From assembly GCF_054482595.1 (NCBI RefSeq), contig NZ_CM137008.1: DNA of 64,000 nt. The stretch is one strand, 5' to 3'. Within the stretch, counting starts at the first letter, position 1. Each line of letters begins with the position of its first letter. Below the pieces are notes generated by a model. That model made no database searches, was not told where the DNA came from, and worked only from the letters and a program-made list of their open reading frames with translations. Of the stretch, positions 3,314-21,538 are shown piece after piece. Position numbers and translations under genes: made by a program.

Positions 3314-4231
3314 ATGCTTATCTTTATCCCGATTCTCATTTTTGTCGCGCTGGTCATTGTCGGCGCGGGCGTCAAAATCGTGCCGCAGGGCTATCAATGG
3401 ACGGTAGAACGTTTTGGTCGCTATACCAAAACGTTACAGCCGGGGCTCAGTCTGGTGGTGCCGTTTATGGATCGCATTGGTCGCAAGATCAATATGATGG
3501 AGCAAGTGCTCGATATCCCTTCCCAGGAAGTTATCTCGAAAGATAACGCCAACGTTACCATCGACGCAGTCTGTTTTATTCAGGTGATTGACGCGCCGCG
3601 CGCGGCTTATGAAGTCAGCAATCTGGAGCTGGCGATCATCAACCTGACCATGACTAACATCCGTACCGTGTTGGGTTCAATGGAACTTGACGAAATGCTC
3701 TCTCAGCGCGACAGCATCAACTCACGCCTGCTGCGTATTGTCGATGAAGCCACCAACCCGTGGGGGATTAAAGTCACCCGTATTGAAATTCGCGACGTGC
3801 GCCCACCGGCAGAGCTTATCTCTTCAATGAACGCGCAGATGAAAGCGGAACGTACCAAACGCGCTTACATTCTTGAAGCGGAAGGGATCCGTCAGGCGGA
3901 AATCCTCAAAGCCGAAGGTGAAAAACAGTCGCAAATCCTGAAAGCGGAAGGCGAACGTCAGTCGGCGTTTTTACAGGCTGAAGCGCGTGAACGTTCCGCC
4001 GAAGCAGAAGCCCGCGCCACCAAAATGGTGTCTGAAGCTATCGCCTCCGGTGATATTCAGGCGGTGAACTACTTCGTAGCGCAGAAATACACCGAAGCGT
4101 TACAGCAGATCGGTTCCTCCAGTAACAGCAAAGTAGTGATGATGCCATTAGAGGCCAGCAGCCTGATGGGGTCGATTGCCGGGATTGCCGAGCTGGTGAA
4201 AGACAGCGCCAACAAACGGACTCAGCCATGA
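3314..4231 (+). CDS. qmcA: SPFH/band-7 (stomatin/prohibitin-family) membrane protein QmcA
   Basis: 305-aa ORF with N-terminal TM helix, SPFH core and charged coiled-coil tail ([27 protein letters not shown]). Confidence 0.92.
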
Positions 4232-4686
4232 TGGAGTTAATGGTCGTTCATCCACATATTTTCTGGCTCAGTCTCGGCGGTTTGCTGCTGGCAGCCGAGA
4301 TGCTGGGCGGAAATGGTTATTTGTTGTGGAGCGGCGTGGCAGCGGTGATTACCGGCCTGGTGGTCTGGCTGGTGCCGCTGGGTTGGGAGTGGCAAGGGGT
4401 AATGTTTGCCATCCTGACGCTGCTCGCCGCCTGGCTGTGGTGGAAATGGTTGTCGCGGCGGGTGCGCGAACAAAAGCACAGCGATAGTCATTTAAACCAG
4501 CGCGGGCAGCAGCTGATTGGCCGACGTTTTGTGCTGGAATCTCCGCTGGTCAACGGGCGCGGTCATATGCGCGTCGGTGACAGTTCATGGCCTGTCAGCG
4601 CCAGCGAGGATCTCGGTGCAGGTACGCATGTTGAAGTCATTGCGATAGAAGGGATAACCCTACATATCCGAGCCGTCTCGTCTTAA
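4228..4686 (+). CDS. ybbJ: NfeD-family membrane protein YbbJ, partner of QmcA
   Basis: 152-aa ORF with hydrophobic N-terminal half; its ATG overlaps the qmcA stop (ATGA at 4228-4231). Confidence 0.88.
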
Positions 4687-5094
4687 TCACCCTGCCCGAT
4701 GATGACAGCAGCCGGAGAGATTTTCGATAATCGGGCAGTCGGCGCTGTCATCGCCAGGGCAGGCATTCGCCAGTGCCAGCAGCTGGTCGCGCATGGATTG
4801 CAGCTCCTCAATGTGTCGTTCGATCTCCGCCACCTTCTCCAGCGTGCGCCGTTTGACGTCGGCGCTGTGCCGCTGCGGGTCGTTAAACAGATTCACCAGC
4901 TCGCCGCTCTCTTCCAGGTTAAAGCCCACCTGCCGTGCCTGGCGCAGTAAGGTCAGTTCGTTGAGATGCTGCTGCGTGTAGGTGCGATAACCGTTTTCGC
5001 TGCGCATCGGCGGCGTCACCAGCCCCTTCTCTTCATAGAAGCGAATGGCTTTGCTGGTCAGGCCGGTAATTTTTGCTACATCGCTGATGTTCAT
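4687..5094 (-). CDS. cueR: MerR-family copper-responsive transcriptional regulator CueR
   Basis: 135-aa ORF: N-terminal MerR HTH ([25 protein letters not shown]) and C-terminal metal loop [11 protein letters not shown]. Confidence 0.95.
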
Positions 5095-10268: not shown

Positions 10269-11010
<742 letters not shown>

Positions 11011-11032
11011 GAGATGAAGCGATGTTTTGGCC

Positions 11033-11512: not shown

Positions 11513-12307
11513 ATGGATCTGTTGTACCGGGTAAAAACGCTTTGGGCCGCGCTGCGCGGTAATCATTACTCCTGGCCTGCCATCGATATCACCCTCCCCG
11601 GCAATCGCCATTTTCATCTGATTGGCAGTATTCATATGGGTAGCCACGATATGGCTCCCCTGCCCGCCCGTTTGCTCAAAAAGCTCAAAAACGCCGATGC
11701 GCTGATCGTCGAGGCGGATGTTTCCACCAGCGATACGCCTTTTGCTAATTTGCCTGCCTGCGAGGCGCTGGAAGAGCGTATTAGCGAGGAGCAATTACAA
11801 AATCTGCAGCACATTAGCCAGGTGATGGGCATTTCTCCGTCACTCTTTTCTACCCAACCGCTGTGGCAAATCGCGATGGTTCTTCAGGCGACGCAGGCAC
11901 AAAAACTGGGGCTGCGGGCAGAATACGGTATCGATTACCAGTTATTGCAGGCGGCGAAGCAACAACATAAACCCGTGATTGAACTGGAAGGGGCTGAAAA
12001 CCAGATTGCCATGTTGCTCCAGCTCCCTGACAAAGGACTGGCGCTGCTGGACGATACGCTGACCCACTGGCATACCAACGCACGGTTGCTGCAACAAATG
12101 ATGAGCTGGTGGCTGAATGCGCCGCCGCAAAATAATGAAATAACGCTGCCCAATACGTTCAGTCAGTCGCTGTACGATGTGCTGATGCATCAGCGAAATC
12201 TCGCCTGGCGGGATAAATTACGCGCCATGCCGCCGGGGCGATATGTGGTCGCGGTCGGTGCACTACACCTGTATGGAGAAGGGAATTTGCCGCAAATGTT
12301 GCGCTAA
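11513..12307 (+). CDS. ybaP: TraB/GumN-family protein YbaP
   Basis: 264-aa ORF with preceding SD (aaagggaggtcgt ATG); conserved position between ybaQ and ybaK. Confidence 0.88.
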   Translation: MDLLYRVKTLWAALRGNHYSWPAIDITLPGNRHFHLIGSIHMGSHDMAPLPARLLKKLKNADALIVEADVSTSDTPFANLPACEALEERISEEQLQNLQHISQVMGISPSLFSTQPLWQIAMVLQATQAQKLGLRAEYGIDYQLLQAAKQQHKPVIELEGAENQIAMLLQLPDKGLALLDDTLTHWHTNARLLQQMMSWWLNAPPQNNEITLPNTFSQSLYDVLMHQRNLAWRDKLRAMPPGRYVVAVGALHLYGEGNLPQMLR

Positions 12308-12389
12308 AAAAATGGCCAATATCGCTATTGGCCCGTCAAAGAGGAATTTCATTTTTTTATTATTATGCCGTCACTTTAAGCGACGGTGT
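12305..12389 (-). ncRNA. chiX: ChiX (MicM/SroB) Hfq-dependent small RNA
   Basis: Minus strand reads ACACCGTCGCTTAAAGTGACGGCATAATAATAAAAAAATGAAATTCCTCTTTGACGGGCCAATAGCGATATTGGCCATTTTTTT, matching recalled ChiX with its terminator hairpin and U-tract. Confidence 0.85.
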
Positions 12390-13026: not shown

Positions 13027-14679
13027 TTACTGCCAGCTCACCTCACCTTTCGGTTCATAAACACTCACATCCAGCGGCGAGCTTTTCTGGATATACGCTT
13101 TCAGCACTTCGGCATCAATAAAGCCGGTATTCACATAGCCCGGTTTGTTATCAAGGCGCGGATAGCCATCACCGCCGGTGGCATTGAAGTTTAATGTCGC
13201 CATACGGTAAGTTTTCGCTGGATCGACCGGTTCGCCTTTGATTTTAAGGTCGTTCAGTTTGCCGTCTTTCGACACAAAGCTAACGTTGGCAAATTGCGGG
13301 TAGGCACCTGAATCTGGCTTCATCTGCGCGACGGCGGTCAGGTAATCAATCACCTCTTTACCGGTCATGTCGGCATACACCACCACATTGCCGAATGGCT
13401 GCACTTTCAGCACGTTTTTATAGCTGATATCGCCTGCTTCGATAGAATCACGAATTCCGCCTCCGCTCATCACCGCAAAGTCGGCACCAGTGCGATCCAT
13501 TTGTGCTGCCAGAATTAACCGCCCCATATTGGTCTGTACAAAACGCACTTTGTCACGATCGCCTTCCAGACGACCATTGGTTTCGCCTATTTTCACTTCC
13601 AGCTGCGCTTTGCCTTTGTTCTGGAACGGTGATAACAGCGAGATCATTTGCTGGTTTTCAGCGATTTCAGGAGTGTAAAGCACGCGCTCGCTTTTCCCGT
13701 CTTCCCAGGTCACTTTCTTCTTCAGGTTCACCGGAATCAGCTGGTAGTTAACCATTTTCATTTCGCCATTACGAAACTCAAAATCAGCCCGTCCCACGTA
13801 TTTGCCCCACTCATGCGCCTGCACAATCCAGATGCCGTTTTGTTGATCTGGTTTGCATGGCGTACCCGGCACGTAATCGACCTGTTTTTTGTTTTCTGCC
13901 GCCATGCAGACCGGATCTTGCGAGTGACCACCGACGATCATCGCCAGCGATCCGGCAGGCAGCGCGCGTGCCATCTCCACATCGCCCGGTGCGTTAGAGC
14001 CGTGCTCACCATTATCGTAATGCCCCATATGGGTCGCCGCGATAATAATGTCTGGCTTTTCTGTCTGTTGCAGCTCCTGAATCACCAGCTTCGCTTCATC
14101 GGCGGGCTTACGAAATTCGACATCAGTGAAGTATTCCGGGTTACCAATTTTTGCTGTGTCATCGGTTGTCAGCCCAATGACGGCAATTTTCAGATCCTGA
14201 CGCTTAAACAGCGCCCACGGTTTAAACAGGCGCTCGCCAGTACTTTTCTGGTAGATATTCGCGGAAAGCAACGGGAACTTGGCCCACTTTTCCTGCTGGC
14301 GTAATACGGTGAGCGGATTATCAAATTCATGATTACCGATCGCCATCGCGTCATAGCCCACCAGATTCATACCGCGAAAATCAGGTTCGGCATCCTGTAA
14401 GTCAGACTCGGGCACGCCAGTGTTAATGTCGCCACCGGAAAGTAGCAGCACGCTACCGCCTTCAGCCGCAACCTCTTTGCGGATACCATCCACCAGCGTT
14501 TTTTGCGCCGCCAGACCATATTCGCCATATTCATTGCGCCAAAAATGCCCATGATGATCATTGGTATGCAGAACTGTAATTTTGTAGGTTTTATCCTGCT
14601 CATACGCCAGAGCAGTTTCACTCGCCAGTGTAAATGTGGTTAACAGCGCTAACGCCACGCCCCGCTGCAATAATTTCAT
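13027..14679 (-). CDS. ushA: Periplasmic UDP-sugar hydrolase / 5'-nucleotidase UshA
   Basis: 550-aa ORF with signal peptide (MKLLQRGVALALLTTFTLASETALA) and metallophosphatase motifs (HTNDHHGH, GNHEFD). Confidence 0.95.
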   Translation of the reverse strand: MKLLQRGVALALLTTFTLASETALAYEQDKTYKITVLHTNDHHGHFWRNEYGEYGLAAQKTLVDGIRKEVAAEGGSVLLLSGGDINTGVPESDLQDAEPDFRGMNLVGYDAMAIGNHEFDNPLTVLRQQEKWAKFPLLSANIYQKSTGERLFKPWALFKRQDLKIAVIGLTTDDTAKIGNPEYFTDVEFRKPADEAKLVIQELQQTEKPDIIIAATHMGHYDNGEHGSNAPGDVEMARALPAGSLAMIVGGHSQDPVCMAAENKKQVDYVPGTPCKPDQQNGIWIVQAHEWGKYVGRADFEFRNGEMKMVNYQLIPVNLKKKVTWEDGKSERVLYTPEIAENQQMISLLSPFQNKGKAQLEVKIGETNGRLEGDRDKVRFVQTNMGRLILAAQMDRTGADFAVMSGGGIRDSIEAGDISYKNVLKVQPFGNVVVYADMTGKEVIDYLTAVAQMKPDSGAYPQFANVSFVSKDGKLNDLKIKGEPVDPAKTYRMATLNFNATGGDGYPRLDNKPGYVNTGFIDAEVLKAYIQKSSPLDVSVYEPKGEVSWQ

Positions 14680-18054: not shown

Positions 18055-18150
18055 ATGAAAAATATGTAGGCATGATAAGACGCGCCAGCGTCGCATCGGG
18101 CATCGAGAGCCAAATGCCAGATGCGGCGTGAACGCCTTATCTGGCCTACG
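18055..18150. repeat. REP pair (single BIME) downstream of ybaL
   Basis: gtaggcatgataagacgcgccagcgtcgcatcgggca and gccagatgcggcgtgaacgccttatctggcctac in inverted orientation. Confidence 0.85.
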
Positions 18151-19619: not shown

Positions 19620-20579
19620 ATGAAGCCGGAAAACAAACTACCTGTTCTGGACCTTATTTCTGCTGAAATGAAGACCGTTGTGAATACTCTTCAGCCGGAT
19701 TTACCGTCCTGGCCCGCAACGGGAACGATTGCTGAGCAACGACAGTATTACACGCTTGAGCGCCGATTCTGGAATGCGGGCGCTCCAGAAATGGCAACCA
19801 GAGCTTACATGGTTCCAACAAAATATGGGCAGGTGGAAACACGTCTCTTTTGTCCGCAGCCAGATAGCCCGGCGACGCTATTTTATTTGCATGGAGGCGG
19901 TTTTATTCTCGGCAATCTCGATACCCACGATCGCATCATGCGCCTGCTGGCAAGCTACAGCCAATGTACGGTGATTGGTATTGATTACCCCCTTTCACCT
20001 GAAGCGCGTTTTCCGCAAGCGATAGAGGAAATTGTGGCTGCTTGTTGTTATTTCCACCAGCAGGCGGAGGATTATCAAATCAATATGTCCCGCATTGGCT
20101 TTGCCGGTGATTCCGCAGGTGCCATGCTGGCGCTCGCCAGTGCGTTGTGGTTGCGTGATAAACAGATCGATTGCGGTAAAATTGCGGGTGTTTTGCTGTG
20201 GTATGGGCTTTACGGATTACGGGATTCCGTGACTCGTCGTCTGTTGGGCGGTGTCTGGGATGGCTTAACGCAACAGGATTTGCAGATGTATGAAGAGGCG
20301 TATTTAAGCAACGACGCGGACCGCGAGTCACCGTATTACTGTCTGTTTAATAATGATCTCACTCGCGAAGTTCCGCCCTGTTTTATTGCCGGGGCGGAGT
20401 TCGATCCGCTGCTGGATGACAGCCGTCTGCTTTACCAGACGTTAGCGGCGCATCAGCAGCCCTGTGAGTTCAAACTCTACCCAGGTACGCTGCATGCCTT
20501 TTTGCATTATTCACGAATGATGAAAACCGCCGACGAGGCTCTTCGCGACGGCGCTCAGTTCTTTACCGCTCAGCTTTAG
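19620..20579 (+). CDS. aes: Acetyl esterase Aes (HSL-family alpha/beta hydrolase)
   Basis: 319-aa ORF with HGGGF oxyanion motif and GDSAG nucleophile elbow. Confidence 0.95.
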
Positions 20580-21538
20580 CGATACGCGGCAACAAGATTA
20601 GCCATCATTTCGATATGTTCCGGCGTGGCATTAAGCGCTGGAATATATTCATATTTTTTCCCGCCGGCACCGAGGAAGACCTCACGGTTTTGCTCGGCAA
20701 TCTCTTCCAGCGTCTCCAGACAATCCGCAGCAAAGCCCGGGCACATCACCTGTATATGACCTACGCCTTTTTCTCCGAGCATTTTCAGCGTTTCGTCGGT
20801 ATAAGGCATCAGCCAGGGTTCCCGGCCAAAGCGCGACTGAAAGGTCATCATCACTTTTTCCGGTGCCATCCCCAGTGCGGAAGCCAGTTCGCGAGTCGTT
20901 GTGCGGCAACGTTGCGGGTAATCATCGCCTTCATCTGCATAACGCTGGGGAATGCCATGATAAGAGAGCAGCAGCAGATCCGGTTCGCCATGTTTGGCAA
21001 AAGAAGCGCGTACGCTGTTCGCCAGTGCATTAATGTAATCGTGGTTATCGGCGTAATCACGAATAAACGATATCCCCGGAATGCTACGTTTGCGCGCCAG
21101 AATGCGTGCCAGTTCATCCCATACCGCACCGACCGTAGAACAGGAGAATTGCGGATAAAGCGGCAGCACCACAATATGATCTACATGCTCTGCCAGGAGT
21201 TCATCGACGGCGCTTTCCAGTGATGGCGAGCCGTAGCTCATGCCCAGCGCTACGGGCGTATCCGGTAAACGTTGTGCCAACGCCTGCTGTTGCTGGCGGC
21301 TGTAAACCATCAGCGGCGAGCCGTCTTCCATCCAGACCGAGGCGTACAGCTTCGCCACACGCGGCGAGCGCAGCGGCAAAATCACGCCGCGCAGCAACGG
21401 CCACCATAACAACCGTGAGGTATCAACCACGCGTCTGTCGCTTAAAAATTGTTTCAGATAGCGTTTTACCGCTTCAGGTGTGGGGGCATCGGGCGTACCC
21501 AGGTTTGCCAGCAGGATACCGGTTTTAGTCTGACGCAT
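20576..21538 (-). CDS. hemH: Ferrochelatase
   Basis: 320-aa ORF; ferrochelatase family; its stop overlaps the aes stop by 4 nt (convergent). Confidence 0.93.

Follow-up and report, generated by a model that had tools for sequence, protein, structure and literature searches.

Two compact convergent gene junctions of Escherichia coli, aes/hemH and ybbJ/cueR, and the predicted ends of their transcripts

The stretch of DNA analysed here, 64,000 nucleotides of contig NZ_CM137008.1 (assembly GCF_054482595.1), is referred to below as the window. It is 100% identical to Escherichia coli chromosomes, in which RefSeq gives the names aes, hemH, ybbJ and cueR to the four genes that concern us. These form two pairs, each converging tail to tail:

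4228 to 4686, plus strand: ybbJ (NfeD family) coding sequence, stop codon TAA at 4684–4686
4687 to 5094, minus strand: cueR (Cu(I)-responsive MerR regulator) coding sequence, stop codon TGA, the complement of 4687–4689
19620 to 20579, plus strand: aes (acetyl esterase; b0476 in MG1655) coding sequence, 319 aa, stop codon TAG at 20577–20579
20576 to 21538, minus strand: hemH (ferrochelatase) coding sequence, 320 aa, stop codon TAA, the complement of 20576–20578
20576 to 20579, both strands: coding overlap TTAG, which reads TAG on the plus strand and TAA on the minus strand, the central TA being common to both stops

How closely do the members of each pair approach one another? An earlier, sequence-only reading had assigned aes and hemH a 3′ overlap of 4 nt and had placed cueR directly against ybbJ. 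The list of open reading frames and direct reading of the sequence agree with it on both counts: the overlap occupies 20576–20579, and the ybbJ stop ends at 4686 while cueR runs from 4687, a spacer of 0 nt. The TTAG of aes/hemH conforms to the pattern [T/C]TA[A/G] of the 4-nt stop/stop convergent overlap. The ybbJ/cueR junction, in which TAA is followed immediately by TCA, does not. In MG1655, whose 455–519 kb region aligns with the window in reverse orientation at ~98.5–98.9% identity, the geometry of both junctions is identical (hemH 498055..499017 and aes 499014..499973; cueR 513993..514400 and ybbJ 514401..514859). The HemH homologs are PF00762 ferrochelatases; hemH itself is induced through OxyR in response to peroxide.

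How unusual is such an arrangement? In the survey of Lillo & Krakauer (2007, PMC2174442), E. coli has 58 convergent overlaps, and their modal length is 4 nt, a size favoured by the pairing of stop codons across complementary strands; 4-nt stop/stop overlaps have been studied statistically since the 2000s. The aes/hemH overlap, whose TTAG holds one stop per strand, is a textbook member of the set. It resembles the set also in that the predicted termination signal of at least one member of the pair falls inside the coding sequence of the partner, as is the case for at least one gene in 21 of the 58 published overlaps. The ybbJ/cueR pair differs from the set in that its genes abut without overlapping, although some relatives show the 4-nt form. 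The 11 convergent pairs of protein genes in the MG1655 counterpart of the window have spacers of −4, 0, 30, 36, 41, 48, 51, 62, 132, 211 and 315 nt. Neither junction exceeds what is expected from chance or background. Elsewhere in the window an sRNA and a coding sequence form a third convergent junction with zero spacer: chiX (Rfam sroB; 12306–12389, minus strand) converges on ybaP, with a 2-nt overlap in the MG1655 annotation.

Both pairs have also appeared in print. Among the 165 convergent excludons of Sanmartin et al. (2025; ExcludonFinder, PMC12288877) are hemH-aes and cueR-ybbJ, an excludon being called when it is seen by RNA-seq in at least 50% of 58 MG1655 transcriptomes. A spacer of 0 nt or less makes a pair pass this coverage threshold almost automatically. 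The short or zero spacing of our two pairs, and terminators that lie inside the neighbour's transcription unit, are typical of convergent excludons. The defining trait of the excludon is mutually exclusive expression by way of overlapping transcription; what has been seen in both pairs is transcript overlap. The same authors report higher synteny for excludon pairs as a class, and state that validation by p19 capture of dsRNA is not feasible for convergent pairs. Searches for gene-specific literature on antisense transcription or terminators at the two pairs returned the ExcludonFinder paper only, or nothing, and the TERMITe supplements mention none of aes, hemH, ybbJ and cueR. Convergent junctions of this kind are thus a common, annotated and published arrangement, and already known.

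What does the arrangement imply for the 3′ ends of the four transcripts? Since there is no intergenic DNA, the 3′-end signals lie within the coding sequence of the partner. It had been argued from the sequence that each transcript necessarily enters the neighbouring gene on its antisense strand. For complete aes, hemH, ybbJ and cueR transcripts this is right: the pairs are spacer-free, and the RNA-seq excludons (PMC12288877) and the Rho sites discussed below (PMC7815308) support it. The companion argument, that neither junction has room for an intrinsic terminator, is correct for the intergenic DNA and goes too far beyond it, since terminators can sit inside the coding sequence of the partner. 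A candidate of this kind lies in hemH, and a rho-independent terminator within the partner is recorded for 23 of the 116 convergently overlapping E. coli genes (PMC2174442). An intact mRNA cannot have a sharp 3′ end short of the partner's stop codon, since that end would fall within or at the stop codon of its own gene. The curated Term-seq table of Adams 2021 (PMC7815308), searched by coordinate prefix, has no entry near either junction; local read counts are low, which makes this absence uninformative. A scan at the Rfam gathering thresholds found no family at either junction.

Where, then, might the aes transcript end? Two hairpins are predicted on aes-sense RNA within hemH:

20612 to 20659, plus strand: T1, a candidate intrinsic terminator of aes, consisting of a 15-bp stem (20612–20649) followed by CAUAUUUUUU (20650–20659)
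20674 to 20708, plus strand: T2, a second hairpin on aes-sense RNA inside hemH, from a consensus fold

T1 lies 33–80 nt past the aes stop, in hemH codons ~293–309, and so within the last 28 codons of that gene. It was picked up by the terminator scan with a stem of −20.5 kcal/mol, and ranks 7th of the non-redundant hairpin-plus-T-tail candidates of the whole 64-kb window, alongside evident gene-end terminators. It combines a stem-loop with a U-run downstream of a stop codon, but its form is less than ideal: the U6 lies 4 nt beyond the stem, whose base is rich in A-U and G-U pairs. The fold is strongly asymmetric, at −21.1 kcal/mol on the aes-sense strand versus −8.3 kcal/mol on the hemH-sense strand. 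With so weak a hairpin on the opposite strand, and with CCAUCAUUUC rather than an A-tract before the stem, T1 is not a bidirectional terminator.

Is the stability of these hairpins greater than the hemH protein sequence requires? T1 surpasses its synonymous recodings in stability by a modest margin (z = −2.1; 82 of 2000 recodings at least as stable). In 9 Escherichia and Citrobacter sequences all 15 of its 15 pairs are kept or wobble-shifted, and there is no double compensatory change among them. Conservation of its synonymous sites is weak, at rank 21 of 303 windows or about the 7th percentile of hemH. The T2 region stands out further. Windows of 42 nt across 20657–20710 reach z = −3.4 to −4.7, and the 1% quantile of the 1575 windows of this size, drawn from a synonymous-recoding control scan that spanned 18 neighbouring genes, is z = −2.97. 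The two most extreme of the 1575 are found 84 nt away from the stop codons of aes and hemH. Within aes itself, ~80 nt before its stop, there is a further terminator-like hairpin at 20450–20508 on the plus strand (−16.1 kcal/mol), followed by CUUUUUGCAUUA.

On hemH-sense RNA, which enters aes in the antisense direction, the candidate signals are of two kinds:

20515 to 20557, minus strand: H1, a GC-rich hairpin with UUUUCAUCAUU, a weak candidate intrinsic terminator or 3′ stem-loop 20–60 nt past the hemH stop
20096 to 20336, minus strand: a tract rich in C and poor in G along the path of hemH read-through, with C/G of 1.6–2.6 at +240 to +440

The core stem of H1 folds at −11.6 kcal/mol and the 39-nt segment at −17.6, against only −10.2 on the aes-sense strand. 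None of 2000 synonymous recodings was as stable (z = −3.5). The hairpin is kept in Escherichia and broken in Citrobacter. A second hemH-sense hairpin, H2, is formed by the same palindrome as the aes-sense hairpin at 20450–20508; among its pairs is one with changes on both sides. Further along, Adams 2021 (supplement 2, PMC7815308) places a Rho region at MG1655 position 499332 on the plus strand, antisense to aes (Rho score 4.07, p = 6e-10). By coordinate mapping this peak falls at about 20261 in the window, ~315 nt past the hemH stop. The Rho regions of that study are drops in coverage sensitive to bicyclomycin, taken from data with and without the drug, and their positions are coarse.

The same study (PMC7815308) lists another Rho region at MG1655 position 498060, 5 nt into hemH (about 21533 in the window, minus strand; score 4.0, p = 1e-17), as well as a 3′ end from Term-seq that lies 116 nt upstream of hemH. 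A strong Rho region together with an upstream 3′ end hints that the adk-hemH leader may be subject to control by premature termination.

The ybbJ/cueR junction is organized differently:

4691 to 4763, both strands: an imperfect palindrome within the final 26 codons of cueR, which forms a long hairpin on either strand
4099 to 4447, minus strand: the cueR read-through path over ybbJ into qmcA, with C-rich tracts (C/G up to 2.7) at +240 to +400

The palindrome begins 4 nt past the ybbJ stop and ends at the cueR stop. Its energy is −41.2 kcal/mol in the ybbJ sense and −39.1 kcal/mol in the cueR sense, and both values exceed those of synonymous recodings (z = −3.8 and −3.3, respectively). For excess stability the terminal window of cueR is second of 1016 control windows of 78 nt. 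As there is no U-run on either strand, the palindrome is not a bidirectional intrinsic terminator, and neither the terminator search nor the folds gave a good intrinsic terminator after ybbJ or after cueR. In 8 genera the core of the hairpin is retained, and in Superficieibacter and Kosakonia it is disrupted; across these relatives no pair is altered on both sides, the changes being wobble-preserving and single. The strongest outlier of the same 78-nt recoding scan lies elsewhere, at about 13606–13683 on the plus strand, antisense to ushA (z = −5.4), where the fold is −29.7 kcal/mol antisense to ushA versus only −13 on the sense strand.

On the cueR side, Adams 2021 (supplement 2, PMC7815308) reports a Rho region at MG1655 position 514988 on the plus strand, antisense to qmcA (Rho score 15.4, p = 2.7e-12). 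It maps to about 4099 in the window, ~588–590 nt past the cueR stop. For both hemH and cueR read-through, therefore, a published Rho region is found with the C-rich tracts that we computed just upstream of it, as for a Rho-dependent terminator. The study contains no Rho region on the aes-sense or the ybbJ-sense strand, where local read counts are low.

How stable have these junctions been in evolution? The aes/hemH comparison covers Escherichia and Citrobacter, the search for HemH homologs having returned almost only Citrobacter. C. sedlakii and four further Escherichia lineages have the same spacer of −4 nt, and in two more Citrobacter it measures 0 and +2 nt. Within E. coli, 263 genomes (~5%) carry a divergent aes/hemH class of 80–90% identity. 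The one member of this class that we inspected, GmF052, has lost 13 nt (CTTTACCGCTCAG) before the aes stop; the deletion gives an Aes of 322 aa and a 26-nt overlap with hemH (positions 1564–1589 of locus L025, corresponding to 20560–20600 in the window). E. albertii has the 13-nt aes deletion in common with GmF052, together with further frameshifts, and its aes reads as what is probably a pseudogene.

The ybbJ/cueR junction varies more widely. The contiguous zero-spacer form is present in 3204 of 5421 matching E. coli genomes and absent from the other 2217 (~41%). Three variant strains were inspected in all, GmF052 at aes/hemH and two at ybbJ/cueR, and in both of the latter the additional DNA is inserted exactly between the two stop codons: 829 nt in NQ3 and 2.56 kb in strain 729. 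The junction at 4686/4687 is a polymorphic insertion site. The NQ3 insert holds REP-like sequence and a frameshifted ORF, and the islet of strain 729 codes for three hypothetical proteins as well as an autotransporter adhesin of the YadA family. The last inserted ORF of either strain ends 0–3 nt from the cueR stop (loci L023, L024 and L026). The ybaQ-copA spacer (10269–11011) contains 7.4 tandem copies of a 101-nt unit, with seven matches to Rfam naRNA4 (REP325), compared with only ~2.4 copies in MG1655, and a single further naRNA4 copy lies at 18069–18146.

Among related genera the ybbJ/cueR spacer takes the following values:

−4 nt: Klebsiella, E. kobei, Yokenella and Scandinavium
0 nt: E. 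coli and Trabulsiella
+5 nt: Citrobacter
+126 nt: Superficieibacter, with a canonical-looking terminator

In E. cancerogenus, C. amalonaticus, Phytobacter and Kosakonia other genes stand between ybbJ and cueR. The 126-nt spacer of Superficieibacter (positions 1966–2091 of locus L016) starts AAAGCUGG...CCAGCUUUU, an A-tract, hairpin and U-tract in succession, and the cueR of this genus is without the terminal palindrome. To judge by its sequence the spacer looks like a canonical two-way terminator. In Phytobacter and Kosakonia it is a DUF3142 gene, not ybbJ, that converges on cueR, with overlaps of 11 nt (L021, 1907–1917) and 47 nt (L022, 1865–1911), respectively; the gene beside it, of 715–731 aa, has no Pfam match. 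Neither YbbJ nor Aes has a conserved C-terminal tail.

How are these observations best explained? We consider it probable that these are two ordinary compact tail-to-tail junctions, and that the overlap of their transcripts is a tolerated by-product of tight packing rather than a dedicated switch. The geometry would have arisen by neutral drift of stop codons at the ends of unconstrained C-terminal tails, a sequence such as TTAG providing a stop on each strand. The variation among strains at both junctions fits neutral drift better than it fits a tuned device. A scheme of termination can be put together from the sequence and from the published genome-wide data, in which T1, H1 and the cueR hairpin are predictions. 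The aes RNA would most likely end at T1 (20612–20659). The hemH RNA would pass the weaker H1 with its short U-run, and according to the published data it is stopped by Rho some 315 nt into antisense aes. The cueR RNA crosses the whole of ybbJ, its Rho stop lying ~590 nt downstream and antisense to qmcA. For ybbJ there is no canonical terminator, but its RNA would at once fold the cueR-terminal hairpin, which may pause the polymerase or block 3′ exonucleases. With termination taking place inside the partner or by Rho, overlapping complementary 3′ ends are unavoidable, and such overlap is seen in RNA-seq.

Could the junctions be something else? It is scarcely credible that they are artefacts of annotation, in which a mis-called stop or frame makes genes appear to touch. 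Stop codons are unambiguous ends of open reading frames, the RefSeq and MG1655 annotations are concordant, and the ortholog lengths are kept across genera (HemH 320 aa in all, CueR 132–138, YbbJ 150–154). We rejected this explanation on the strength of those conserved lengths. If the pairs were functional convergent excludons, the obligatory 3′ overlap would itself regulate, transcription of one gene lowering the other through cleavage of the mRNA duplex by RNase III or through head-on collision of polymerases; this is the mutual antisense interference for which the earlier reading saw potential. Both pairs were called in at least half of the MG1655 transcriptomes, the excludon class has the higher synteny already mentioned (PMC12288877), tight junctions persist over several genera, and collision of polymerases at stem-loops drives termination in vitro (Wang et al., bioRxiv 10.1101/2022.10.23.513370). 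Yet at a spacer of 0 nt or less the RNA-seq call is close to automatic, and dsRNA validation failed for the convergent class (PMC12288877). Nor is there an evident functional link between the partners, haem synthesis with an esterase in the one case and a copper regulator with a membrane NfeD protein in the other. Read counts for all four genes are low in the published data (PMC7815308), each junction is disrupted or changed in many strains and several genera, and the strong intramolecular hairpins would compete with an intermolecular duplex. On balance we regard such regulation as quite unlikely.

What of the hairpins themselves? The cueR palindrome, and to a lesser degree T1/T2 and H1/H2, may be selected structures that stand in for an intergenic bidirectional terminator, a possibility that we hold to be doubtful. 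Their role would be to define or protect both convergent mRNA 3′ ends, or to position polymerase collisions. Stated for cueR, the tentative proposal is that 4691–4763 would be a selected, U-tract-less, two-strand intragenic 3′-end element serving cueR and any convergent mRNA, and the stacked hairpins at aes/hemH may play the same role. Selection of this kind would explain why ybbJ, the islet ORFs and the DUF3142 genes all end a few nucleotides from the cueR stop. In every hairpin-bearing genome examined a convergent ORF, be it ybbJ, an islet ORF or DUF3142, lies no more than 11 nt from that stop, and Superficieibacter, lacking the palindrome, has its spacer and canonical-type terminator. The palindrome's high rank among control windows and its folding on both strands point the same way. 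There is also precedent: Rho-dependent transcripts end just past stable stem-loops without a U-run (Dar & Sorek 2018, PMC6061677), and positioned collisions need a nascent stem-loop (bioRxiv 10.1101/2022.10.23.513370). On the other hand, the cueR hairpin shows no compensatory substitutions, and its presence tracks the protein motif DDSAD...SGCCH, so that protein constraint and shared ancestry could account for its conservation. Kosakonia, with an overlapping convergent gene and no hairpin, weakens the rule that tight junctions and hairpins go together. The regions were picked after inspection, a bias that the control scan of the genome region lessens. A shared 3′-end element is in any case compatible with passive packing and does not exclude it.

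The comparison with known systems is close in some respects. Like the bidirectional terminators and collision sites of Wang, Watters, Ju & Liu (bioRxiv 10.1101/2022.10.23.513370), cueR offers a two-strand stem-loop at a convergent boundary; unlike those terminators, the hairpins here lie inside coding sequence, the U-run of T1 is one-sided and the cueR palindrome has none. The protective 3′ stem-loops of PMC6061677 resemble what we find on the Rho-dependent hemH and cueR read-through RNAs, where C-rich tracts are preceded by stable hairpins without a U-run (H1/H2 and the cueR palindrome). They differ in that the hairpins described here are predicted from sequence and also encode part of a protein, either that of the opposite gene or that of the gene itself.

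These zero-spacer convergent genes are a worked example of termination signals placed inside each other's codons. Junctions of this sort are evolutionarily fluid and can act as insertion sites. The 3′ sequence that the partners share carries a measurable RNA-structure signal beyond the needs of the protein sequence, and this excess structure, above all in the cueR palindrome, is the one mildly new finding. Together with the higher synteny of excludon pairs (PMC12288877), the excess stability of the embedded hairpins leaves room for selection on the overlap itself. If the cueR element is what the more tentative proposal takes it to be, it would be an intragenic variant of the known bidirectional terminators.
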